A stretch of 64,000 nt of DNA from a phage, in the NCBI GenBank assembly GCA_025611195.1, contig GCA_025611195.1_4718.1; one strand, written 5' to 3'. The notes under the pieces were generated by a model. The model searched no databases and was not told the DNA's origin. It was given only the letters and a program-made list of their open reading frames with translations. Of this stretch, positions 10,477-55,145 are shown piece by piece (positions within the stretch are counted from its first letter, which is position 1; every line of letters begins with the position of its first letter). A program made the translations under genes and the position numbers.

Positions 10477-12933
10477 TTAAATAATCGTGACGTGTTCGTT
10501 ATACGTTTCAGGGAGGATGATGTTCGTTTTATCAAGAACCATACACTCAGCTTTACGGAATGATGCATGGTTGATAACATAGTGGCTGATGAACCACACT
10601 TGGCTTACGCGATGACCATCGACCAAACGACGAACAAAATCCATGGCATTAGATTGGTGCTGCGGATCAAATGTTGATGCGAATTCATCTAACATCAACG
10701 GATAATCCGTAAACCCCTTGTAATGCATCATCGCGATGATAAACGCGATATTGATAATTTCCTTTTGTCCCTTACTCCCATAAACAATATCTTTTCGCGG
10801 CGTCGGATACTTCTCAGTTAAAAGCGGAAAACGATAGTTCAATCCTTGCGCGTCGATAGCACACGGAAGTATCTGAAGTTGGTATTCCCAAATACTCGAA
10901 ATGATACCGTTCATGTATTCAACGAACGCGTTGATTGGACCAGCGATTGTTTCGGCAATCAATCCGTTGGATGGACTCAACTCATCCAGAACAAGTTGTG
11001 CGTAACTGAGCTGTTCTTCCACCTCTTTTTGCGTTGTTTCCAACTGAGCCAGAAGCTGCTGGTCGGTTTTAGCTTCCTGTAACTGCTGTTCGACATGACT
11101 TATCCGGCGAACCGTATCAGACATCGCAGCACGTAGTGATTTCGTGTAAAGATGCTGTAGATACTCCAACCACAGTTGCGTTAACGCTTTATCGCTACTA
11201 TCAGAACGTACCTGATCTTCCATAATCGCCGTAATGGTTTCCAATCTACCTTCCGTAGCTGTGATGGCTTGTGTTAACCGTTCAACGGTTGTTAACAACT
11301 CTGTCCTGTTCTTATAAAGCAGTTCTCGACGTTGCTGTAATGGTTCAACATCAACCGCTTGTACACGTTCGAGCATATCCTGAAGATGTTTACGTTCTTG
11401 CTCGGCTTGTGTATAACGCGCGAGTTTCTCGAATGCAAGCAACCAGTCGTTAATGATGCCAATACTGCGGAATCCTAAACCGTTTTTGCGGCCTTCTTCC
11501 AGCAGATTATCCCACATGGGTTTAATAGCGTAATAATCTTTCGTCCAACGCGTTAACTGACGATGCTGTTCCATCCAAAGCGTATAACGCTGCACCTTCT
11601 CATTAAGTTCGGCTAACGATTTCTCCTGTTCTTCAACCCAAGCGCGACCCTTCTGAATACGTTGTTCAATGCTCGCTTTGCTGGTCTTTTCTGTCTCACC
11701 AACATGAAAGCGATAATTGCATTTTGGACAGCTGGTCTGGGGTTGATGGTTAAGATGGTCAAGATGCGCTTCCAAATCGGCTAACGCGTGTTTCGCGTTA
11801 CGCAAACGCATTCGTGCCGCCTCTTCCTCCTTGATGTAAGCTTCAGCATCGTAAACATGATAGGTGTTGTCGGTATCAATCCATTCTTGCAATAGTTCCG
11901 TTAACGGAGCCTGAACTTGCGTGAGCTGTTGTAAACAAACCGCGGCGTCCAGATTCATCGTTAAAAGCTCACCTGGATGATCATGCTGAAGTTGTTCGTC
12001 CAAACAGGCAAGGCGGGCTTTAATCTGATCGATATCGCCTTCTCCAGACTGTTTCAACTGGTCAAGGATATTATCGATACCCAACAGCTCGTCAACCTGA
12101 CTTTCGAGTTTCGCATTCGCATTCGCGAGTTGCTCTCTTAGTTCAGCCAGATTCCGCTGTTCTTGTTGCGATGTTCCTCCTTGGTAACGAACAACCGCAC
12201 GAAGAAGCTCGCGATTAAAATGATGGGCACGTTGTGCGGATTCCAGAAGCTGTCGTTGATCAACATCGCTATCGAATAACGGCAATCCCATCATCGCTTC
12301 GAGCGCCGAGCGTTGCTGCTTTAACTCTGCTTCCAATCCCTGGTGGTCGGTTCCAGTGTATTTCGCTTCAATTCGCTGTGATGTTTCAACCAACTTATTC
12401 AATGTGTGCTCATTCACCGCTTTCAGTGAACGTACCTGTTGCTTAACAACCTGAAACAGCTCAAGCGCATAATCGACGTTAACCGGGCATATCTGCGTTA
12501 ATCGTTCGCGACGTTTCATCGGTCCCATTTCGGTGAACTGGTAAGCTGTTTCGTAACCTAACAACAAACGAATGGTGTCGTCATTAAGTTCGAAATGTTC
12601 TTCGATCAGTTTCCACTGGGCTGGTTGTGTGCCACCACCATTCAAGTTCTCACTGTCGTTAACGTAGAACTCGTGCTTAAACCCTTTTTCTAAACGACTG
12701 ATAAGACGGTATTGCTTATTACGGTGTTCGCAGCGGTACTCGTAATACCCGTCTTTATCAAAATCAGCGCGCTCGGGAACGGTTGGATACAGCAAAGGCA
12801 GTAGACTGCTCTTACCCGAACCATTACTACCTAGAATGAGTTGTACGGGATTATCTGGCCGGATGACCAGCTCCCGAATCATCCCGGTATCAAAACGATT
12901 GAATCCACGTAAGTGGAGATAGGTGCATCGCAT
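10477..12933 (-). CDS. SbcC/Rad50-like SMC-family ATPase
   Basis: N-terminal Walker A LILGSNGSGKSS, long central coiled coil with mid-protein CPKC zinc-hook, C-terminal Walker B LMLDEF and H-loop FISHY; start at 12933 or 12969 uncertain. Confidence 0.7.
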   Translation of the reverse strand: MRCTYLHLRGFNRFDTGMIRELVIRPDNPVQLILGSNGSGKSSLLPLLYPTVPERADFDKDGYYEYRCEHRNKQYRLISRLEKGFKHEFYVNDSENLNGGGTQPAQWKLIEEHFELNDDTIRLLLGYETAYQFTEMGPMKRRERLTQICPVNVDYALELFQVVKQQVRSLKAVNEHTLNKLVETSQRIEAKYTGTDHQGLEAELKQQRSALEAMMGLPLFDSDVDQRQLLESAQRAHHFNRELLRAVVRYQGGTSQQEQRNLAELREQLANANAKLESQVDELLGIDNILDQLKQSGEGDIDQIKARLACLDEQLQHDHPGELLTMNLDAAVCLQQLTQVQAPLTELLQEWIDTDNTYHVYDAEAYIKEEEAARMRLRNAKHALADLEAHLDHLNHQPQTSCPKCNYRFHVGETEKTSKASIEQRIQKGRAWVEEQEKSLAELNEKVQRYTLWMEQHRQLTRWTKDYYAIKPMWDNLLEEGRKNGLGFRSIGIINDWLLAFEKLARYTQAEQERKHLQDMLERVQAVDVEPLQQRRELLYKNRTELLTTVERLTQAITATEGRLETITAIMEDQVRSDSSDKALTQLWLEYLQHLYTKSLRAAMSDTVRRISHVEQQLQEAKTDQQLLAQLETTQKEVEEQLSYAQLVLDELSPSNGLIAETIAGPINAFVEYMNGIISSIWEYQLQILPCAIDAQGLNYRFPLLTEKYPTPRKDIVYGSKGQKEIINIAFIIAMMHYKGFTDYPLMLDEFASTFDPQHQSNAMDFVRRLVDGHRVSQVWFISHYVINHASFRKAECMVLDKTNIILPETYNEHVTII

Positions 12934-37684: not shown

Positions 37685-40591
37685 ATGAACGATATAAATA
37701 AAGGGCGCGTCGCCCTCGAACGTCAAATGAGCAATAATGACGTTGCGAAGGCACTCATGAACAAATTTGTCGCTCCTGCTCCGCAGTCACGTCTTTATAA
37801 TACACGTGATGCGGAAGGAGCGAGCGGTCGTTTCGGGTTAGTTGTTCCCGACCAAATGACGATGAACACGGTTACGCGTGCGACCGCGACAAACATCGAG
37901 GATAATAAAAACATTCTCGAGCTGTTCCCTGAACTTAAACGCGTGATGCAGATCTACGTTGCCGCGTTGACGAACCCTAACGATCTTAAGACGGTCGAGA
38001 TGTTTATCGATAGCGAAGATTTCCCCGGTAGGGTCGCAGAAATCGTTCAGCCGATGATCGATACCATCGACACGCATTTTAAGAATATCTATAAAATAAA
38101 GACGCTTATCCCTCGTATCATCGAAGACGTCTTCTTTATCAAGGGCAGTTATAACTTCGTTGTTCTGCCAGAAAGCACGCTCGACCGCGCTATTAACGGT
38201 AACGGTCAACTGAAACTTGAAGAATACGGATTTAGAGACAACCACTTTGCAAGTTGGGGGCTTTTAGGTAACGATAGTCGCAAACGTCACGAAAATCAAT
38301 TACCTTCGACGGTTTCGATGGAAGATTATTTCTCAGGCGTTAATGAAACCATACCGTACGATCCCGTTGTCCGTATAGACAGCATTAAGTTTACCAATAC
38401 CCTGCTTCGTGATAAGGACGGTAAATTCATTGAAGCGAAGATCGATATTCCGGATATGGTTACGGTTGTCGATAACCCGGATATCCTCCGTATGCCTATT
38501 TTGCATCAGCGTCGAGCAGCGACAGCGGTGCAGCGTGCGTTACGCGCGAACACATTAGGAGGTAGTGGTTTGGTAACGCTGTCGGGTGATCCAACCCAAA
38601 CCGCTAACCGACGCGAGCTAACGCAAGAGCAGGTTAACGAGATTTGGAATAAACTCAACATCCAACGCCACACTAAGGTATCTCCCGTTTACGCGTTGGC
38701 AACCCCAGATACACTCGATCGTCAAAGTGTTGGTCACCCCGGCGTGATGCATGTACCGCCTGAGGCATTAGAACCAGTACATGCGCCAGGTGATCCGGAG
38801 AACCATATCGGGTATTTAGTTCAGTTGGATGAGTTTGGTTATCCGGTGCGTTTGGTTGAAGATGCGGCGTATTACAAACAGTTGGAAGGTCGGTTGTCGA
38901 AGATCACCGCGGATATCGCAGGTACTTCAAGCAACGGCATGGCGAGCGAGATGATCGGCGCGGCCAAGAACATGGTCCAAGGTACGTCATGTAATCAAGT
39001 AGACATGTCGGCCTTCGTATCGTCGTACGAATCATTGATGCAGCGCTACATTGTTGAACGTATCGTCAACGGTTATCTTGGTAGTGCGGTGGAGATCGGT
39101 GCGACATCATCGTTTTACCTATCGATGCTTGCTCGCAGTCTCGCCCACAAGCAGACTCGTGTTTTGTTTATTCCTCGTGAGATGGTGACATACATCGCTT
39201 ATGAATACAACAAATACGGTATCGGTCGTTCACTGCTTGAAAGTACGAAGATGATCTCGTCGCAACGAGCCATGCTCATGGTTCAAGAACTGATGGCGAA
39301 AATCAAAAGTTCGTTGAACTATACGACGCTAAGCGTAATGCTTGAAGACACCGACAGAAACCCGGTCGATACCGTCGAACAGGCATTACATAGTTTCGCT
39401 CGCGTCTACCAGTCTGGTTTCCCGTTGGGTGAAACTAACCCAATGGATATCATCAACGCGTACGAACGAAGCTCGATTCGATTGAAGGTTGAGGGGAATA
39501 ACCCACGCTTCCCGAAATTGAATACAGATGTCAGCGTTGAGCAGCGTAACTATCAGTCTCCTGATAACGAATTGATGGATCGTTACCGCCGTGACCATTT
39601 CATGGGTTTGGGAGTTTCTCCAGAGATTATCGATACTTCCTACCAATCTGAATTCGCGGCTTCTGTGATTACCGCCAACGCGATGCAAGAGAAGCAGTTC
39701 ACGGTTTGTCGTGAGGTTATCACGAACGGCTTAACTGATCACATCAAGAAGTACACGGCTTACAGTCCTGTATTGTTGACGTCGCTACGAAACACGGTTC
39801 GTGCGAACATGTCTAAGCTCTCCCAAGCACAATTGAAACAGCTTTTTGGTAGCGATTTCGAAAACGGCGTTATTCGTAACGTTAATGCTTATCAGGAGAT
39901 CGACGACCAGTCAGCAACAATGGACCTGGATTATTCTAAACCGGAAGTTCAGGAAGTTATTGCCGATGCTTATGTATCCATGTTCTTAAACAGTCTGCAG
40001 GTGCGTTTACCGAACAGCAATGCTCGCCGCCTTGAAGATCAGGTACGTGAATATAATCAGTACAAGGAAGCGATTACAGCGCAACTTGATGATTATTTAA
40101 CCCCTGATTACGTCATGGGTCTGGGTGGGGTTGATGAAACAACACTGCAGATGATCCGCGCATGCATTATTGGTACCGCGATGCGTACGTGGGCAAAAGA
40201 GAACAACTTCAATCAGGAGCTGGCTGATCTCTTCAGTCTTGACGATAAGAAGAATGCCGTGCAAGATTGGAAACGTGCATCCATGGAGCATATTGAAATC
40301 ATGGGTAAATGCATGGGTGATTTTGCATTGTATATTCAGAATCTGACGAAGAAGATTGAAGAGAAGATGGGGGATCAAGCACAGGACGGCAGCGTTTCAT
40401 CTGATGGTTCTTGGTCGTCTGATTCAAGTAGTGATACCGGTTCTTCTGATGACTTTGGTGGTGATGATTTCGGGGATACCGATTTCGATACCGAAACGAT
40501 GGAGGAAACCTCAACAGAGGAGACAACCACGTCTGAGGATACGACTACCGACACAACGTCAGAAGACGAGACTTCAGGTGATATTGTCTAA
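37685..40591 (+). CDS. large hypothetical protein with acidic S/T/D/E-rich C-terminal tail
   Basis: 968-aa ORF, AAGGAG SD before ATG 37685; last ~70 aa are almost entirely S, T, D and E. Confidence 0.55.
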   Translation: MNDINKGRVALERQMSNNDVAKALMNKFVAPAPQSRLYNTRDAEGASGRFGLVVPDQMTMNTVTRATATNIEDNKNILELFPELKRVMQIYVAALTNPNDLKTVEMFIDSEDFPGRVAEIVQPMIDTIDTHFKNIYKIKTLIPRIIEDVFFIKGSYNFVVLPESTLDRAINGNGQLKLEEYGFRDNHFASWGLLGNDSRKRHENQLPSTVSMEDYFSGVNETIPYDPVVRIDSIKFTNTLLRDKDGKFIEAKIDIPDMVTVVDNPDILRMPILHQRRAATAVQRALRANTLGGSGLVTLSGDPTQTANRRELTQEQVNEIWNKLNIQRHTKVSPVYALATPDTLDRQSVGHPGVMHVPPEALEPVHAPGDPENHIGYLVQLDEFGYPVRLVEDAAYYKQLEGRLSKITADIAGTSSNGMASEMIGAAKNMVQGTSCNQVDMSAFVSSYESLMQRYIVERIVNGYLGSAVEIGATSSFYLSMLARSLAHKQTRVLFIPREMVTYIAYEYNKYGIGRSLLESTKMISSQRAMLMVQELMAKIKSSLNYTTLSVMLEDTDRNPVDTVEQALHSFARVYQSGFPLGETNPMDIINAYERSSIRLKVEGNNPRFPKLNTDVSVEQRNYQSPDNELMDRYRRDHFMGLGVSPEIIDTSYQSEFAASVITANAMQEKQFTVCREVITNGLTDHIKKYTAYSPVLLTSLRNTVRANMSKLSQAQLKQLFGSDFENGVIRNVNAYQEIDDQSATMDLDYSKPEVQEVIADAYVSMFLNSLQVRLPNSNARRLEDQVREYNQYKEAITAQLDDYLTPDYVMGLGGVDETTLQMIRACIIGTAMRTWAKENNFNQELADLFSLDDKKNAVQDWKRASMEHIEIMGKCMGDFALYIQNLTKKIEEKMGDQAQDGSVSSDGSWSSDSSSDTGSSDDFGGDDFGDTDFDTETMEETSTEETTTSEDTTTDTTSEDETSGDIV

Positions 40592-41014: not shown

Positions 41015-43573
41015 TTACTGCTCTTCACGTTCCAACAGATACTCGGAAGCGGTAATACCGTTTACCGTACGTACTGCTTTCAGACGAGTATCATCACTCA
41101 GAATCACGGTAACAGACTGCAGACCTTTTACTTTGGTCTCGAAGGTCTTGAATACCTGATCCAGCATACGAGCAATGCTTGGGTTGGTTGCAGCCGATGC
41201 GTGAGTGTAACCATTCTGGTTCAGCTTCAGAATCTTGGCGTTGGTTGGTACACGAAGAACAACATGCGGACGCATTGCGAACACACTGTGGTTAAACCAG
41301 TAAGCATCGTTACTATCTTCGTCGGTGACGATGTCTGGATTAACACGCATGTCTTCGGTAGCCGCGTCTGCCAAACGACGTTCGATTTCGTCAGCATCCA
41401 GAGAGCCGTCCTTCTCCAGTTCTGCACGATACTCACTCATGGCAACCAGATGACGTTCACGATTCGCTGCAGATTTTTCGTGAGCGGCTTTCAGGTAGTC
41501 ATGCATGTTGTACAGTTCTGCTATGGAAAGACGAATGTTCCACTGACCTTCGCCGTCACGATTGCAGTAGAGACACTTCAGCATGTTGACCCAGGTGTAG
41601 TAGCAATTGGAGAACTCATCTTCAATGAACTTTTGATCCATTTTAAGATCGTGAATCAGCCAACCGGACAGTTCTCCGATATCATCAACGAAGCTAGAGA
41701 TGGTGGTTTCAGAGAAGTTCTTCGGTACGATACGTTTGATCAGCTTGTTAACGTCTTTGGTCATGCTATCGTTCAGGAAATGCCAAATACGCAGAGGGAT
41801 GACGTCACGATACTGTTGCATGATCTGACGATAAGCTTTGATATCGTCGCTACGACCTTTATCAATAGACAACGCGTCCAGGAATTCATGGATAGCATCC
41901 AGCTCTTTGTCGGTATAGGTTCCCAGATAGGAATTGACCGTGGCAAGGAATGCTAATGCGTCGTTTTGGTTGACGTCAGTGTTGGTCTGCTGAATGATCG
42001 CTACTGCAGCTTTGGTTTCAGCATCCTCAACGCTTGACGCTGCGATCGCGTCGGTAACAGTAAACAGTTTCATTTCGCGCTGTTCGCCGACAACGATCGG
42101 TTCACGTTGAATCGGTTTGTTAAGACTAACGCGAACAACTTCTGCTTGCGCGATACGATCCAGTTTTACCATTTCCTGCTCTGCCATACGACGAGCGGTT
42201 GGATCTGATTCAAGTTCGATGTATTCCACTTCTTCCTCCGTGAGGGATGTAATGTCAACAATGGTTTCATGAAGAATTCCGTTTTCGTCGATACGTGCTC
42301 GACGAGCGAAGTGTCTGAAGTCATACAACGTTGGCCAGCGACAATTCGGCGCGTAGTCTTTGGCCTTCAAACGCATCTGCATAAATTCTTCATGTTGAAC
42401 AACACGACCGTAACGCTTAGCATCTTCGGTCGCATCAATTGGATTAACGGTCTTTGTTACCGTAGCGGAACGAGCCGTACGAATGGGTTCCGGTTTAGTC
42501 TGCACAGGTTCAGGTTGAACGGATTTCTGTTGTCCGGCCTTAACATGCCATTCGGGTTCTTCGTACCGTTCAGCAAATTGCTCGGCTGCTGCAAAGATAT
42601 CATTGATGCCACCAATATCTCCTTCTGGGTTCGTCGAATATACCCGTGGTTGCGGTGCCTCATAACGCGGCGCTGCGGTAGCAGGTGCGTCATTAACGAT
42701 AGGATCGTCATCACCAACATCGTACAAACGGTTGAACGCACAATCCTTCGAATCGATATACGATGGAGCTTGTGGTTGGATAACCGTCGGTCGAGGCTGT
42801 GCGCCGTATCCCGGCATTGTTGGAGCCATACCACGCATAACTGCCGGGTTAGGTTGGTATTGTGGTTGTGGGTAGGTTCCACCATACGTGGGATATGCGG
42901 GCTGTTGCGGTTGACCGTACCCACCGCCAACCATCGCATTTGCTTGCGGCCCACGGTAAGTCATCCCCAGTTGCATTACCTGCTGCTTCAGACCACGGGA
43001 CTTCTGCGCTATTTGCGCTAGACTCCCACTTTTATTTAGCTGCGTGTACTTATTCGCGGCTTCCGGGTTAATGCGCGATAATTCAATCGCACGATAATAT
43101 TCCGGGTATTGATTGGCTTCAAAGAGCCAGGTTACGAGGTGATACAGCGCAACTGTGCTCACAGCAGCAGAGACGATCTGGTCGTTGGACGCATTCTGCG
43201 GCATCGGGTTGATGTAAGAGAATACGTTCCAACAACAGTCTTCAACAAGCGATTCCATCATCATATCGTTATTGGTGTAACGTGCGACGAACTCGGTTTG
43301 TATTTTATCCTGTTGGGCGAAGTCTTTCAGGACATTGAAGACGGCTTGACGGATTTTGACGATCGTCGCTTCTTGGGTGATGAAGTTATAGTTCTGCTGA
43401 TATGATGGTTGTTGGTACTGTGGTTGTTGATAGGTGTTATTCGGGTATGCGCCGTACGGTGGTTGCTGGTACTGTTGCTGGCGAACCTGCTCAGCCGCAT
43501 AATTAATCGTGCTCGCATAAGGGTTTTCGCTGTAGCCCATTTGCTGATACATGTTGTTACTGCCATTATACAT
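41015..43573 (-). CDS. large protein with Q/P/Y-rich low-complexity regions
   Basis: 852-aa ORF; N-terminus and a central segment are QQPxYG-type low complexity. Confidence 0.55.
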   Translation of the reverse strand: MYNGSNNMYQQMGYSENPYASTINYAAEQVRQQQYQQPPYGAYPNNTYQQPQYQQPSYQQNYNFITQEATIVKIRQAVFNVLKDFAQQDKIQTEFVARYTNNDMMMESLVEDCCWNVFSYINPMPQNASNDQIVSAAVSTVALYHLVTWLFEANQYPEYYRAIELSRINPEAANKYTQLNKSGSLAQIAQKSRGLKQQVMQLGMTYRGPQANAMVGGGYGQPQQPAYPTYGGTYPQPQYQPNPAVMRGMAPTMPGYGAQPRPTVIQPQAPSYIDSKDCAFNRLYDVGDDDPIVNDAPATAAPRYEAPQPRVYSTNPEGDIGGINDIFAAAEQFAERYEEPEWHVKAGQQKSVQPEPVQTKPEPIRTARSATVTKTVNPIDATEDAKRYGRVVQHEEFMQMRLKAKDYAPNCRWPTLYDFRHFARRARIDENGILHETIVDITSLTEEEVEYIELESDPTARRMAEQEMVKLDRIAQAEVVRVSLNKPIQREPIVVGEQREMKLFTVTDAIAASSVEDAETKAAVAIIQQTNTDVNQNDALAFLATVNSYLGTYTDKELDAIHEFLDALSIDKGRSDDIKAYRQIMQQYRDVIPLRIWHFLNDSMTKDVNKLIKRIVPKNFSETTISSFVDDIGELSGWLIHDLKMDQKFIEDEFSNCYYTWVNMLKCLYCNRDGEGQWNIRLSIAELYNMHDYLKAAHEKSAANRERHLVAMSEYRAELEKDGSLDADEIERRLADAATEDMRVNPDIVTDEDSNDAYWFNHSVFAMRPHVVLRVPTNAKILKLNQNGYTHASAATNPSIARMLDQVFKTFETKVKGLQSVTVILSDDTRLKAVRTVNGITASEYLLEREEQ

Positions 43574-43608: not shown

Positions 43609-45405
43609 TCAATCGATTATGTCACGATCGTTAATTTCTACAATTTCTTCATCGAATCGACCGACGTCTTTCTTCAAGCCTGCATTTGTTGCTGCAACGT
43701 CATTTGCGATTTGTGGGGTAATGATTAACCGACCGCGTTCATCGATAGGTGCGTACATACTGAACTTCTGACGTCCGGTTGGTTCGGAGTGTGGAAGATT
43801 CAGATAGCTTGCGCAGAACGGGATGGAACCACTCACCAAACGACTCTCGTCAGCCAACGCAGCACCGCCTGCATTTTGGCTCTGGAGAACAACATGCGTG
43901 CTCACTTTGAACAGCATGCAATCGCCCGGTGACTGAATCGATGTTGCCACTTTCTCACGCTTATCACGATTGCTCTGGATATTGAGAATCGCTTCCGTTG
44001 CAACTTGATTGCGCAACGCCTTCTGTACATCGCGATTGGTCATCTCTTTACGGTTGTTCTGTCGTTTACCACGTTCCGTGGTTTTAAGATGGAACCCCAG
44101 TTTAAAGATGCTTTTACGCACATCCTCCATGACGTATTCCAACACCATCAATTCCTTACCGAACATCGTCGTGGTATCAACACGACTCATTTCGATAGTA
44201 ACGTTGTCAATCAGATACGCCATAAATTCGTAGAAGTCGTCGCAAGGAATATTTTCCTGTTTGAACTTCTTCTGTTGAATTTCATCAACGTAAAGATCGA
44301 GACTGTCGATGTGGTGGTTTACATCACGCAACAAACGCGCATCCGCATTGTTGTTATTAAAGATAATCAAACCGAGTAATGTACGCCAATGGTCTGGCGC
44401 ATTAGCGAACTCTTCAACCGGATAGTCTTCCGGGAAACGATCGTAATAACGGTCGATGAGATATAAGAACGCGCCGACAAGGCCAAGAACAATACGTTCC
44501 GTACCTCCACGTCTTACAGCGATTTGAATATCGGGATGTTTATAACGTACAGCGTTAGCGCTACGGCTTTTACCGCTTTTGCTGATACTAAAGCCTTTAG
44601 GAATAACCCCCATGGTGCGATAGATTACCCATTGGTCGCGCGGAAAATCGCGTTCAGCAAGATTCCGTCCGGTGACGGCTTCGACGCCAGCAAAACGTCG
44701 GAAACATTCACCCACCCCATACTTCGCAAAGAGATAGTGACCCAGTGTGGTTACGCTGGTGTGGTTGATGTTGTCACCGTTCACTTTACTTTGTTTGGTA
44801 AGATGATAGATTTGCGACCAGGGTAACGACAGGTAATGACGATAATCGATACCCGTTGGTGTATCATTGCTCAGGAACTGATACGGTGTACGTTTAACCG
44901 TGATTTTGTCACGCGGAAGCATGATGAACGCCATGTCTTTCGTGTAACTGATTACAGGGTCAGCGAGCACTGCACTGAGAATGAAGTTCGCACCACGTAG
45001 ACGCATTTTACCACCCTGACCTACCGCGGGCAATAGGAGAGGATGTCGGATAATGCAGTAGTCCTTTCCTGGTTCGCGGCGGTCACCTGATTCCATCGCA
45101 CCATACCAGCGGAATTCTAGCATCACCATAAACACGTCGGAAGGTGCAAGGTCGAAGGTCAGCTTACCGCTATCCTTCCCTTTGGTTTTCTTTCCTCCGC
45201 TTAAGTAGTGGAACTGTTCGCGGGCCATACAACGACGCAGGCCATGATACACCAGATCCTTAGGTAAACTATCTTTGCTGTTCCGCCAAAGACGATCAAC
45301 ATAGGACTCAACATCTTGCATCTTATCGACGACGATGTTGCGTGCTATCTTCTCGTTCATCTTCGGTGCAAGCTCAGCGACAGCTTTGCAGAATCTAGGA
45401 TCCAT
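43609..45405 (-). CDS. hypothetical protein
   Basis: 598-aa ORF with no internal stops. Confidence 0.55.
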   Translation of the reverse strand: MDPRFCKAVAELAPKMNEKIARNIVVDKMQDVESYVDRLWRNSKDSLPKDLVYHGLRRCMAREQFHYLSGGKKTKGKDSGKLTFDLAPSDVFMVMLEFRWYGAMESGDRREPGKDYCIIRHPLLLPAVGQGGKMRLRGANFILSAVLADPVISYTKDMAFIMLPRDKITVKRTPYQFLSNDTPTGIDYRHYLSLPWSQIYHLTKQSKVNGDNINHTSVTTLGHYLFAKYGVGECFRRFAGVEAVTGRNLAERDFPRDQWVIYRTMGVIPKGFSISKSGKSRSANAVRYKHPDIQIAVRRGGTERIVLGLVGAFLYLIDRYYDRFPEDYPVEEFANAPDHWRTLLGLIIFNNNNADARLLRDVNHHIDSLDLYVDEIQQKKFKQENIPCDDFYEFMAYLIDNVTIEMSRVDTTTMFGKELMVLEYVMEDVRKSIFKLGFHLKTTERGKRQNNRKEMTNRDVQKALRNQVATEAILNIQSNRDKREKVATSIQSPGDCMLFKVSTHVVLQSQNAGGAALADESRLVSGSIPFCASYLNLPHSEPTGRQKFSMYAPIDERGRLIITPQIANDVAATNAGLKKDVGRFDEEIVEINDRDIID

Positions 45406-45444: not shown

Positions 45445-46881
45445 TTACTTTTTCGATGACGTCTTCTCAAGAATCTTGAAAAAGGTCATACCTATACCGA
45501 CAACGGCCGCAGTTATACTCGCAGCGGCTTTCCAAACATCGACGTTACGTTGACGTCGCGCTTCTTCCGCTTCACGTTGTCTTTTTGCCTCTTCATCACG
45601 TCGACGTATCTCAGCAGCAAACTCGTCGTGCTTACGTTTGGCTTCTTCGTCTCGACGACGAAGTTCAGCGACGAATTCTTCATGTTTGCGTTTGGCCTCG
45701 TCATCACGACGTTTTAAATCAGCTTGATAATCTTCGTGTATTTGTCTACGTAGATCATCTTGACGTTTCATTTCGGCTTGGTGTTGTTCCATCCTACGTT
45801 TTGATTCGTCTCTAAGCTGATCGAGTTCGGCTTTGTGTTGTTCATCGCGCAGCTTTGCGTCGGCGCGATGCGCTTCGTGCATCTGTGCGATAACCGCCTT
45901 GTGTTCATCCGCCATACGCCGCATTTCAGCCATCACCCCTTTAAGGGTTTCTTCTGATGACTTACGTTCATAGCTACGCTGGTCGAAATCATTTTTGTAG
46001 GCTTCTTTTTGGATGGGGTCGCGCCAATGCAATGCCGATTCACGTGTCGGAAAAACATTATACTTCCACATCTCTTTTTCCAAATCTTCGACCGGTACGA
46101 AGACGGAGTCGTTATTCCCGAAGGTAACCAACATACCTGGCGCGCCTGCTCCATTCGTTGGTTTTATTTCGAACGCTTTCCCCAGCACGTTAACCCATAG
46201 GCTATACGGATTATGAAAGTCGGGCGGCGTCCAATGGATAGTGAGTTGCGTTCCGAGAATCCGGAAACCCTCTGTCTTTCCTGTCAAGCTCCGCGCACAT
46301 GTTGCGATGTAGGGGTGATCAATCCCTTTCGTAACATGGTCTGCGCTTTTGTATTCTCCTTTAACTTTTACGATTGCCACGTTGATTTGCGCGACATAAA
46401 TAGGTTGATTAAAGTTCAACGTGTTGAGGTCAATTTGACATATCTCATCCAGCGTATCGTACCAGTCTTGCTGGTCTAATAGACGCGGTATTTTCTCTGT
46501 GTTAACGGTGCGATGGATATGCGGTTTCCTTATCGCATAACCGGTGCCGTTTTTAACGCGGAGTATATCCCGACGTCTACCCGCGTAGACGAAGTTTCTG
46601 AATGCACCATTCGCATTAGATATGTCATGGCTGTCAACTATTACAGGACTACGAAATTTTGAACGTCGTACGATCCTGAATGTATTGCCGTCCTCAACTC
46701 TACCAGGAATGTACTGGAACATATTGTCGGAGGTGATAACCAACACGGTATGGCCGGATTCATTAATACATGCCCACCCTAATTCCAGGTCATACAACGG
46801 TTCAGCATAACCGTCAATGCGATATGCGTGCGTACCATCCCACGGTTCGAACGCGGTATCACATATTGGCATGGAGGGCAT
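45445..46881 (-). CDS. coiled-coil protein with tandem RRRDEEAKRKHEEF repeats and C-terminal TM anchor
   Basis: ORF 45445..46887 (TTG) trimmed to ATG 46881 with GGAGG upstream; about three 18-aa charged repeats then hydrophobic AAASITAAVVGIGMTFF. Confidence 0.5.
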   Translation of the reverse strand: MPSMPICDTAFEPWDGTHAYRIDGYAEPLYDLELGWACINESGHTVLVITSDNMFQYIPGRVEDGNTFRIVRRSKFRSPVIVDSHDISNANGAFRNFVYAGRRRDILRVKNGTGYAIRKPHIHRTVNTEKIPRLLDQQDWYDTLDEICQIDLNTLNFNQPIYVAQINVAIVKVKGEYKSADHVTKGIDHPYIATCARSLTGKTEGFRILGTQLTIHWTPPDFHNPYSLWVNVLGKAFEIKPTNGAGAPGMLVTFGNNDSVFVPVEDLEKEMWKYNVFPTRESALHWRDPIQKEAYKNDFDQRSYERKSSEETLKGVMAEMRRMADEHKAVIAQMHEAHRADAKLRDEQHKAELDQLRDESKRRMEQHQAEMKRQDDLRRQIHEDYQADLKRRDDEAKRKHEEFVAELRRRDEEAKRKHDEFAAEIRRRDEEAKRQREAEEARRQRNVDVWKAAASITAAVVGIGMTFFKILEKTSSKK

Positions 46882-47031
46882 CGTCAACCTCCATCAGATT
46901 GAAAACTATCACGCATAATGCATTTCCCTTTTCTTGTTCTTATCAAGCCGACAGCCGACGGTTTCAGCATCGTCCCTAGCGCGAGAACGACCTTACGTGT
47001 TGTCTATGCCTTATTAATCGCAGGCGTCTGT

Positions 47032-53383: not shown

Positions 53384-54286
53384 TTACTTAGCCTTTGAGT
53401 TATGCGGACTAACATGCTGTTGTACTCGTTGGATTGTATCGTAGTACGGGTTAGATTGGTTGAACATGTTGTTGTGTGGGGGATAGCCATATGGCGCATT
53501 TTGCCTTGTTGGTGAGAAACCTTGTTGAGAAGGACGGTTTGAATTAACCGCGAGTACGTAGTAAACCAAATTTTGACGGTCGAATGTTCCTTCGTTTTTG
53601 AAAGTGTCGGCGTAGGCTTTTACCGCTGGAGTGAGCCTATCACCATCGGCTGTAATAATTGTACCGTCTGGGTAAACTTCCCGAACGACGCACCATGTTC
53701 CGATGAGAACATCTTTAGGTGCTGTATTACCATATCCGGTTGTAACGGTAAGGTAAGTATCGAACCCTTCAGAACAACAAGGATGACGATAGATGGGTCC
53801 TGTCATTTCCGTTCTATCGGTATCGCTACATTGTTCTATTGAGAGCGATGATGTGTCGGTTTTGAAATTGTCAAATTCTTTCTTTAAGTCGATTACGGGT
53901 TCTTTCGTATAGTACTTCTTGATTGCTTTGACGTAAAGATCAGGAACGGTTGTCAGCAATCCGTTATACCTGATTCTCAGGTTTTCGAGTAATCCAAAGA
54001 TGCTCGCGCATGCCTGTTCGCGAGGTTTTGTAAGATAAGAGATCCCCTCAGGAACGCTGGGATCTTTGAGAAAGAAGATTGCGTTATTGTCGTTGTGCGA
54101 TGCGTTGAAGAAAACGATTGATTCGATATATACGGAGCATAGGCTGTCATTGGCGTCGTCAGATAACACCCAGATGCACTCATCGGTCGTCTTGTTTAAA
54201 AGTTCTGTTTTGTCGACCAAACGTTGTTTCATTGCGAGGAAATGTGCCTGTTGTTCAGCAGTTAATTCACGATAAATAGTGGTCAT
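53384..54286 (-). CDS. hypothetical protein, paralog of 54372..55145
   Basis: ORF 53384..54364 trimmed to ATG 54286 (AAGGAG upstream); shared segment YRHPCCSEGFDTYLTVTTGYG...WCVVREVYPDGTIIT vs YIHPECHTTYDRYLTITGG...WRMIREIYPDGRIVT. Confidence 0.5.
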   Translation of the reverse strand: MTTIYRELTAEQQAHFLAMKQRLVDKTELLNKTTDECIWVLSDDANDSLCSVYIESIVFFNASHNDNNAIFFLKDPSVPEGISYLTKPREQACASIFGLLENLRIRYNGLLTTVPDLYVKAIKKYYTKEPVIDLKKEFDNFKTDTSSLSIEQCSDTDRTEMTGPIYRHPCCSEGFDTYLTVTTGYGNTAPKDVLIGTWCVVREVYPDGTIITADGDRLTPAVKAYADTFKNEGTFDRQNLVYYVLAVNSNRPSQQGFSPTRQNAPYGYPPHNNMFNQSNPYYDTIQRVQQHVSPHNSKAK

Positions 54287-54371
54287 GTTGGGCTCCTTGA
54301 TTACGATAAGGATGATTGCGGTTTTGTGGGTTTGGTAGGGCCCTAAACAAAGGAACCCTACCAATATTAGG

Positions 54372-55145
54372 TTAATCAGGATCGGCGTAGAAATGGTGAG
54401 GATAGCCGGAGTACGATCCTGCGTTACCGGCTATGGATTCTTTCTGGGAATCGACGACGAGCGCATAGAACTGTCGGGAATTTGTTAGCGTTGAGAAATA
54501 AGCGGAAAGGACTTTTTCATTCAATGCATCACAAGGTAGGCAGGTGCGACCGCAAAACGTCACGATACGGCCGTCAGGATAGATCTCACGAATCATTCTC
54601 CACTCACCGATATCCACTGGTGATGGCGCTGCTACACCACCTGTTATCGTTAAGTAACGATCGTACGTGGTATGGCATTCAGGATGAATATAGATCGGCT
54701 TGTTCGTTTCGACAGGTTCCGAAGTATCTCGACGACTAAGAAGCTCAACGACTTCAAGATAAATCGTTGGTAGATCGCGGAGAATACCGGTGCTACGACG
54801 TTTCTTTGTGATTCGCGGACGAATCTCGTTGAGAGCGTATTCGAGCTTACGTTCAGCTTCGTACGCATCGAGTTTTATCAAGCGACCCGGTTCATCGGAA
54901 TGATCCTGAGTTACGTAAACGAAATACGTGTCGCCTTTTGCAGCGTGAAAGATTCGAGCGACCTTAAATGTTTCTACGGTACGATAACCAAGGCGCGATT
55001 GATTTTCCACAGGAGAAAATATCCAATGCCGTCCTTCGTCAGCCTCAACAATTTCGTTGAAACTATCTGTCTGTTCTGGGACCTGGTAGTCAGCCAGTAA
55101 TGTGTCGAGAGCATCATCAGCCAGTTTGATGTAAATATCTGTCAT
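54372..55145 (-). CDS. hypothetical protein, paralog of 53384..54286
   Basis: ATG 55145 with GAGGA upstream; preceded by the TATATTAC-type motif and a palindrome. Confidence 0.5.
   Translation of the reverse strand: MTDIYIKLADDALDTLLADYQVPEQTDSFNEIVEADEGRHWIFSPVENQSRLGYRTVETFKVARIFHAAKGDTYFVYVTQDHSDEPGRLIKLDAYEAERKLEYALNEIRPRITKKRRSTGILRDLPTIYLEVVELLSRRDTSEPVETNKPIYIHPECHTTYDRYLTITGGVAAPSPVDIGEWRMIREIYPDGRIVTFCGRTCLPCDALNEKVLSAYFSTLTNSRQFYALVVDSQKESIAGNAGSYSGYPHHFYADPD

Follow-up and report, generated by a model that had tools for sequence, protein, structure and literature searches.

Which family does a phage protein belong to when it combines ordinary globular sequence with two segments rich in glutamine, proline, tyrosine and glycine, and what may these segments be for? 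The question is raised by a gene at positions 41015-43573, minus strand, of contig GCA_025611195.1_4718.1 (NCBI GenBank assembly GCA_025611195.1), a phage sequence of 64,000 nucleotides that is referred to here as the window, and which is a 93%-identical relative of the Escherichia coli chimallivirus Goslar, a nucleus-forming jumbo phage. We found that the encoded protein of 852 amino acids (aa) belongs to a known family characterized only recently, JADA, of which it is a new and highly divergent member. Very probably, it represents the JADA ortholog of the Goslar lineage, whose Q/P/Y-rich segments would be disordered tethers that provide reach and weak multivalent contacts.

Gene position and profile comparisons place the protein in the JADA family

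JADA (PhiKZ gp124, Pa36 gp316; PDB 9RP3), a name given by Muralidharan et al. (Mol Cell 2026, PMC12931631), is a non-virion protein of the nucleus-forming jumbo phages, or Chimalliviridae, that is essential, abundant and made early. Its gene is invariantly found downstream of a gene for a subunit of the non-virion RNA polymerase (nvRNAP), and the protein is built from an N-terminal domain (residues 1-170), a disordered linker (170-270) and a C-terminal domain (270-721) (PMC12931631). Since sequence searches fail in this extremely fast-diverging family, the protein of the window was placed by gene position, for which the following two features are relevant.

41015 to 43573, minus strand: JADA ortholog gene (Goslar gp38 equivalent), complete, 852 aa, stop codon at 41015-41017.
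43609 to 45405, minus strand: nvRNAP beta subunit gene (Goslar gp39, homolog of PhiKZ gp123), matching phrog_2943 ('polymerase') with E 7e-120.

The nvRNAP beta gene, whose product is also homologous to RAY 'nvRNAP beta subunit 1', was found by tblastn in 274 jumbo-phage records, where it is annotated as nvRNAP beta. After this gene, and on the same strand, every chimallivirus locus that we examined has a gene for a protein of 516-911 aa. These loci are about 20 besides that of the window, namely, RAY, KpHz_2, PhiPA3, PhiKZ, 201phi2-1, RSL2, Centimanus, Proteus phage 10, Moabite, Vibrio 2 TSL-2019, SPN3US, Derbicus, phiKp_32, Yong MS31, Halocynthia phage, EL, AVP1, RP31 and Totoro. The PhiKZ member at this position is gp124, whose sequence is essentially identical to that of PDB 9RP3 ('Gp316/JADA'). 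In the window, the gene for the 852-aa protein likewise lies directly downstream of nvRNAP beta, on the same strand and 35 nucleotides from its stop codon. The corresponding Goslar gene, Goslar_00038 (gp38, a 'hypothetical protein' of vB_EcoM_Goslar), shares 93.2% nucleotide and 95.7% amino-acid identity with it, and the gene neighbors in the window agree with the Goslar map. Goslar_00038 (QBO63831) also stands in the RAY gp4 (FDH98_gp004) column of Prichard et al. 2023 (supplementary file 3), together with PHIKZ124, 201phi2-1p204 and PhiPA3 gp140.

Searches started from the protein itself reached few sequences. There was no match beyond Goslar when 50,697 phage records were searched by tblastn, and scans of Pfam, PADLOC and, at full length, PHROGs gave nothing meaningful; a match to Cas9_C_2 (E 0.0018) was rejected as it falls below the family cut-off. 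A single-sequence search of a database of 5.8 billion proteins provided four close relatives with 79-99% identity, all four of which keep both low-complexity segments, and family-profile searches of the same database had 8 and 2 proteins among the matches listed. With aa 273-852 as the query, 1.84 billion representatives were searched exhaustively by HMMER, which returned only P0001 and P0005, the latter a 38%-identical relative that matches the 852-aa protein with E 8e-100.

Comparison of profiles led to the JADA family, with the following results. First, hhalign aligned the Goslar lineage (the window protein and P0002-P0005) with a family profile (PhiKZ gp124, 201phi2-1 gp204, RAY gp4, Proteus phage 10, KpHz_2 and RSL2) over 346 columns, pairing aa 407-835 with PhiKZ residues 368-708 (probability 99.06%, E 1.8e-18). 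Second, a hidden Markov model (HMM) built from eleven C-terminal domains, with no sequence from the Goslar lineage, detected the 852-aa protein at aa 410-829 with 24.6 bits (E 6e-4) and P0005 with 47.2 bits (E 8.5e-11), these E-values being for a nominal database of one million sequences. Third, the C-terminal domain alone matches phrog_15010, the PhiKZ gp124 family, with E 0.0024. The homologs from RAY and Proteus phage 10 match the 852-aa protein in pairwise BLASTP with E 0.007, and their group matches PhiKZ gp124 in hhalign at 97.3%. The motifs W..P.P..YD...DG, T..VN...I..F..D..EL..Y and P.L...T.DG are common to the 852-aa protein and JADA.

Comparisons with solved structures point in the same direction. 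Foldseek ranked 9rp3_A (E 2.7e-4) and 9rp3_B (E 5.5e-4) as the top two of 350,542 PDB chains, both with a probability of 0.99, the next chain having E 0.13. Being based on a predicted model, this ranking supports relatedness to 9RP3 and is no proof of fold. By sequence, the best PDB match of the lineage profile was also 9rp3_A, with a non-significant E of 1.2, and neither direct phmmer nor hmmsearch with the near-identical, lineage-only alignment reached 9RP3 significantly in the PDB. Taken with position, these results identify the C-terminal domain as homologous to JADA residues 270-721 of 9RP3.

During the survey of loci, the PhiPA3 ortholog (NC_028999, 10649-12770) was seen to be seemingly split or mis-annotated. 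Its gp140 (261 aa) corresponds to the N-terminal domain and ends within a G/S/M-rich linker, and the C-terminal domain is an unannotated plus-strand open reading frame (ORF) at 11190-12740, 43% identical to PhiKZ gp124, over which gp141 is annotated on the opposite strand, probably spuriously. A frameshift or a sequencing error in the low-complexity region is the likely origin of this split.

Domain organization of the Goslar-type protein

The ATG of the 852-aa ORF, at 43573, is preceded by an AAGGA ribosome-binding site. Two ORFs of 250 aa lie opposite the gene, at 41201-41956 and 42269-43021 on the plus strand, and are most likely spurious shadow ORFs. Composition, family alignment and AlphaFold2 models, whose confidence is given as predicted local distance difference test (pLDDT) values, divide the protein as follows.

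43385 to 43573, minus strand: N-terminal low-complexity segment, aa 1-63, Q/Y/N/P-rich and almost uncharged.
42953 to 43384, minus strand: N-terminal helical domain, aa 64-207, predicted by AlphaFold2 as a helical bundle (helices 58-201, pLDDT about 60-70).
42758 to 42952, minus strand: central low-complexity segment, aa 208-272, P/G/Q/A/Y-rich.
42434 to 42757, minus strand: stretch of acidic, Pro/Ala-rich sequence, aa 273-380, with 28% charged residues and a net charge of -8, pLDDT 23-34.
41018 to 42433, minus strand: C-terminal domain, aa 381-852, homologous to the dimeric JADA C-terminal domain (PDB 9RP3).

This layout is like that of JADA, with a helical domain at aa 64-207, a region of low complexity and low pLDDT at aa 208-380, and a C-terminal domain at aa 381-852; the helical domain lies where JADA has its N-terminal domain (residues 1-170). 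The acidic stretch is probably disordered save for one short helix at aa 323-337, and the C-terminal domain may have its first elements within it. What the sequence-only reading had called ordinary globular sequence is indeed ordinary in composition over the 472 residues of the C-terminal region, where pLDDT reaches 80 in the full-length model; it is, however, a member of a characterized family with a solved structure.

The Goslar-type protein and PhiKZ gp124 (phrog_15010) thus share their position after nvRNAP beta, their strand, the domain-tether-domain layout and C-terminal homology. The former is 131 residues longer and has an extra N-terminal segment of 63 aa rich in Q, Y, N and P, a Tyr/Pro/Gln-rich linker where that of gp124 is Gly/Met/Gln-rich, and, as judged from the family alignment, a helical insertion of about 80 aa in its C-terminal domain (about aa 670-760) that is specific to the Goslar lineage. 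RAY gp4 and the Proteus phage 10 homolog (phrog_11639) resemble it more fully, having the same position and layout and both the N-terminal and the central uncharged Q/P-rich segments, in which Met (RAY) or Phe (Proteus phage 10) takes the place of the Tyr of the Goslar lineage.

Both low-complexity segments are constrained in the Goslar lineage

The two Q/P/Y/G-rich segments on which the sequence-only reading had focused were confirmed by composition. At aa 8-63 the protein consists of 27% Q, 20% Y, 11% N and 11% P, with 5% charged residues and an aromatic residue about every 5 positions; at aa 208-272 it consists of 22% P, 15% G, 15% Q, 11% A and 11% Y, with 3% charged residues. The densest window of 30 aa contains 24 residues of the Q/P/Y/G class, above the maximum of 20 in 20,000 shuffles of the same protein, and therefore the enrichment is not due to chance. 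No tandem DNA repeats were found in the coding region, so the segments are not recent products of slippage, and this origin was rejected.

Both segments seem to be intrinsically disordered, and the central one would be the inter-domain tether of the family, since its position matches that of the disordered linker reported for JADA. In the full-length AlphaFold2 model, the two segments and the linker have pLDDT values of 22-34 (27-34 for the N-terminal segment), values that agree with disorder without being strong evidence for it.

When compared with Goslar, the ratio of non-synonymous to synonymous substitution rates (dN/dS), which rests on small counts, is 0.09 for the N-terminal segment and 0.21 for the central segment, and 0.03-0.04 for the folded domains. 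Judged from these ratios, purifying selection acts on both segments within the Goslar lineage. In P0003 and P0004, identity is 88-89% for the central segment and only 76-78% for the N-terminal domain, and the GYGQPQQP core of this segment has seven of its eight positions invariant across the lineage, P0005 included. The N-terminal segment is nearly absent from P0005.

Linkers of two types recur across the family

The sequence-only reading had described such a composition as unusual in phage proteins, which holds in general, but not here, where low-complexity linkers are the rule. In a survey of 25 orthologs taken by position, homology being established for only some of them, nearly all have a low-complexity stretch in their N-terminal part. 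The exceptions are EL ORF081, in which no stretch was found under the threshold used, and phiKp_32 and Yong MS31, in which it lies farther downstream. Among the positional equivalents, the family HMM detects RP31, Halocynthia phage and AVP1, and EL weakly, and has no match to SPN3US, Derbicus, phiKp_32, Yong MS31 or Vibrio 2 TSL-2019.

The linkers are of two types. The first is uncharged and Q/P/G-rich, with Tyr in the Goslar lineage, KpHz_2 and P0009, Met in RAY, P0007 and PhiKZ, or Phe in Proteus phage 10. The second is Arg/Asp/Gly-rich with scattered Tyr, for instance 'RGRGRDRDYDRDDRGGRDRDRR' in RSL2, and is also present in Centimanus, Moabite, Totoro and P0011. At aa ~100-280 of the RSL2, Centimanus, Moabite and Totoro proteins we observed a mixed-charge linker with RG/RGG and RD repeats, in which about 37-54% of residues are charged. 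N-terminal segments similar to that of the Goslar lineage were found in RAY gp4, Proteus phage 10, P0006, P0007 (metagenomic) and Vibrio 2 TSL-2019, and such a Q/Y/N/P segment is absent from PhiKZ gp124.

Both the uncharged, aromatic-studded Q/G/P type and the Arg/Gly type are compositions that drive multivalent interactions in eukaryotic condensate proteins. The closest likeness there is to the FET-family (FUS-like) and RGG-box domains, and it concerns the Tyr-studded, uncharged segments of the Q/G/P/S kind in this lineage and others as well as the Arg/Gly/Asp-rich segments with Tyr in further clades of the phage family. This is an analogy only; the phage segments are shorter (about 55-130 aa), have much more proline and are not accompanied by a recognizable RNA-binding domain. 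A bacterial counterpart is the linker of SSB, also an uncharged Gly/Gln/Pro-rich tether, which joins a folded oligomeric domain to a distal interaction element. In E. coli SSB this linker includes the sequence GQPQQP, and a part in cooperativity and phase separation has been reported for it. When the lineage profile was compared with the PDB, a chain of SSB (7f2n_A) ranked second, at aa 212-242, with a non-significant E of 5.4. The likeness is of composition only; the 852-aa protein is not homologous to SSB, has no OB fold and no acidic tip, and contains much more Tyr.

Linker composition, phase separation and condensates are absent from the JADA paper (PMC12931631). A family-wide low-complexity tether, present almost throughout, of two recurrent types and selectively constrained in the Goslar lineage, is therefore a new element beyond it.

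Proposed role of the tethers and alternative explanations

What is known of JADA function comes from PhiKZ-type orthologs. A fluorescent fusion of Pa36 JADA is diffuse before infection and then gathers in foci at the vesicle of early phage infection (EPI), which is the first compartment that nucleus-forming phages make; the Pa36/PhiKZ-type protein purifies as a discrete dimer through its rigid folded C-terminal domain; and a role in early transcription has been suggested (PMC12931631). Pa36 JADA activates three P. aeruginosa Avs5 (STAND/Sir2) clades through the same domain, which alone is toxic and sufficient for activation (PMC12931631). Knocking PhiKZ124 down by antisense causes a strong disturbance of phage transcription at 30 min (PMC12571901). 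In PhiKZ, no gene of more than 2,154 bp was found with transposon insertions (PMC12676376), and orf124, with 2,166 bp, is above this length. PhiKZ gp124 is also reported, at second hand, among the proteins purified together with host DnaX or FtsZ complexes (Van den Bossche 2014, as cited in PMC11849849), an account that is given no weight here. By analogy, early expression, essentiality, dimerization, EPI foci, an effect on transcription and sensing by Avs5 may be transferred to the 852-aa protein. JADA is among the few essential, family-wide proteins of nucleus-forming phages that await a molecular function, and it is a pattern sensed by Avs5 immunity; with the Goslar-type protein as a member, the family now reaches the main E. 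coli model chimallivirus, for which genetics and cryo-tomography of the EPI vesicle are established.

If the Goslar-type protein dimerizes in the same way, each dimer would carry four Tyr-studded uncharged segments, arms whose most likely contribution would be flexible reach together with weak multivalent contacts. The latter would help to concentrate the protein, and the partners bound to its domains, at the vesicle or nascent nucleus, the site where early transcripts emerge. Of the role proposed by the sequence-only reading, association with a compartment agrees with the Pa36 foci at the EPI vesicle (PMC12931631), and amyloid or prion-like assembly is the less likely part. Were the tether needed for the foci, this would explain the local concentration of JADA at the vesicle, and would point to a site that can vary without altering the C-terminal domain sensed by Avs5.

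Several observations weigh against the assignment or against a role in weak contacts. The two AlphaFold2 models have poor mean pLDDT values of 44.6 and 51.5, low because the input alignments held only 9-10 sequences. TM-scores to 9rp3 in the Foldseek comparison were only 0.21-0.24, with a query pLDDT of 51.5 and a predicted TM-score (pTM) of 0.29. The N-terminal domain has no detectable homology to that of PhiKZ or RAY (hhalign probability 3%), and the C-terminal domain is only 12-18% identical to the PhiKZ-type orthologs from which the functional statements are transferred. The PhiKZ-type protein is diffuse without infection and a clean dimer (PMC12931631), linkers from different members of the family differ widely in length and composition, and Goslar gp38 was detected in purified virions at an estimated 25 or so copies each (range 17-39), near the estimate for the portal of about 16, which fits poorly with a purely non-virion role.

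The serious rival is that the segments are passive entropic spacers, which free the motion of the domains and whose composition reflects a lack of constraint rather than stickiness, a possibility that we hold tentatively and below tethers with weak contacts. It would account for the linker being unseen in the 2.1 Å cryo-electron microscopy (cryo-EM) map, for the solubility of the dimer, as measured by mass photometry, and its diffuse distribution in uninfected cells, and for the toxicity and Avs5 activation obtained with the C-terminal domain alone (PMC12931631). It also agrees with the great differences in linker length and composition between clades, with P0005 being almost without the N-terminal segment, and with the segments evolving 2-7 times faster than the folded domains at non-synonymous sites when compared with Goslar. 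However, the dN/dS values of both segments are well under neutrality, the central segment is better conserved than the N-terminal domain in P0003 and P0004 and has a nearly invariant GYGQPQQP core, and the coding DNA has no tandem repeats from which recent slippage could be read. Moreover, across clades the linkers are confined to two compositional classes in which aromatic, Met or Arg residues are kept, and do not drift towards arbitrary polar sequence.

A stronger version of the tether hypothesis is that the tether is the functional core of a JADA hub, whose dimers would form a condensate-like layer on the EPI vesicle or nascent nucleus that would capture early transcripts, ribosomes or new nvRNAP subunits. 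This reading takes the two linker types, Q/P/G studded with Tyr, Met or Phe and Arg/Asp/Gly-rich with Tyr, for those that drive multivalent condensation in eukaryotic RNA-granule and transcription-hub proteins, and we consider it unlikely. If true, it would represent an independent case, from a bacterial virus, of gene expression organized by low-complexity sequence around a nucleus-like compartment.

Less probable still is that the 852-aa protein is a packaged virion protein, ejected with the genome, and that the segments have a part in packaging or in passing through the tail. CsCl-purified virions were found to contain Goslar gp38 (26 peptides, 28% coverage) at the estimated copy number given above, and the gene lies between the major capsid and portal genes. 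However, PhuZ (about 170 copies) and chimallin (about 126 copies), both intracellular proteins, are in the same virion dataset, and abundant non-virion proteins therefore co-purify, carry-over being the simpler explanation for gp38. By 10 min, PhiKZ gp124 has been newly synthesized and is abundant (PMC12931631), and the Churi ortholog is listed among the non-structural proteins, expressed at 15 min. Furthermore, gp38 is not among the 28 modeled Goslar structural proteins and is unmentioned in the text of the Goslar cryo-EM paper, and the 201phi2-1 and RAY orthologs are annotated as hypothetical only, while their neighbors carry notes of virion mass spectrometry.

Finally, it is very improbable that the segments form amyloid-like, self-templating assemblies like the Q/N-rich prion domains of yeast, since proline, which strongly disfavors cross-beta structure, is spread throughout both (11% in the N-terminal and 22% in the central segment). 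The make-up of the N-terminal segment in Q, N and Tyr does resemble that of prion-like domains (Q+N 38%, Tyr 20%, 5% charged and almost no aliphatic residues over about 56 aa), a partial fit that is judged from composition. The PhiKZ-type ortholog is soluble, dimeric and diffuse even when over-expressed (PMC12931631), and P0005 does without most of the N-terminal segment.

Neighboring genes and other observations

The gene upstream of nvRNAP beta, at 45445-46887 on the minus strand, is the equivalent of Goslar gp40, which the table of Prichard et al. 2023 groups with PhiKZ gp122 and RAY gp1. Its product has a long coiled-coil region of Arg, Glu, Lys and Asp with near-repeats of 'RRRDEEAKRKH(D/E)EF.AE', and at its C-terminus a hydrophobic helix (AAASITAAVVGIGMTFFKIL) with a basic tail behind it, an arrangement that is tail-anchor-like; PhiKZ gp122 and RAY gp1 also have a C-terminal hydrophobic helix. 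Phage transcription is strongly perturbed when PhiKZ122 is knocked down, as it is for PhiKZ124 (PMC12571901). It is tempting to speculate that the gp40, nvRNAP beta and JADA genes may act together as a single module at the lipid vesicle.

On the other side of the JADA gene lies the portal gene, the major capsid gene being farther upstream.

37685 to 40591, plus strand: portal (Goslar gp36), modeled by cryo-EM in Goslar.

The last ~60 codons of the portal gene encode a long, acidic low-complexity tail rich in Ser, Asp, Thr and Glu (…SSDGSWSSDSSSDTGSSDDFGGDDFGDTDFDTETMEETSTEETTTSEDTTTDTTSEDETSGDIV). The crown domain comprises residues 778-923 according to the Goslar cryo-EM paper, and the tail would fall outside the domains assigned there.

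No tRNA genes were found in the window. A scan for sigma-70 promoters and terminators gave numbers at or below those expected from shuffled sequence, and its promoter part is uninformative because these phages use their own polymerases.

A further pair of genes has some features in common with the segments discussed above. At 53384-55145, minus strand, two paralogous ORFs (up to 326 aa and 257 aa) lie next to each other and share the core motif 'IY.HP.C...YD.YLT.TGG', and both end in tails that contain Tyr and Pro. The 3.4 kb in which they lie match Goslar by megablast over only 48% of their length, and the pair may, on this sequence comparison, be part of an insertion or replacement relative to Goslar. 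The first of the two, for which PHROGs and PADLOC gave no match, has the window's only other comparable uncharged Q/N/P/Y-rich segment of at least 30 aa.

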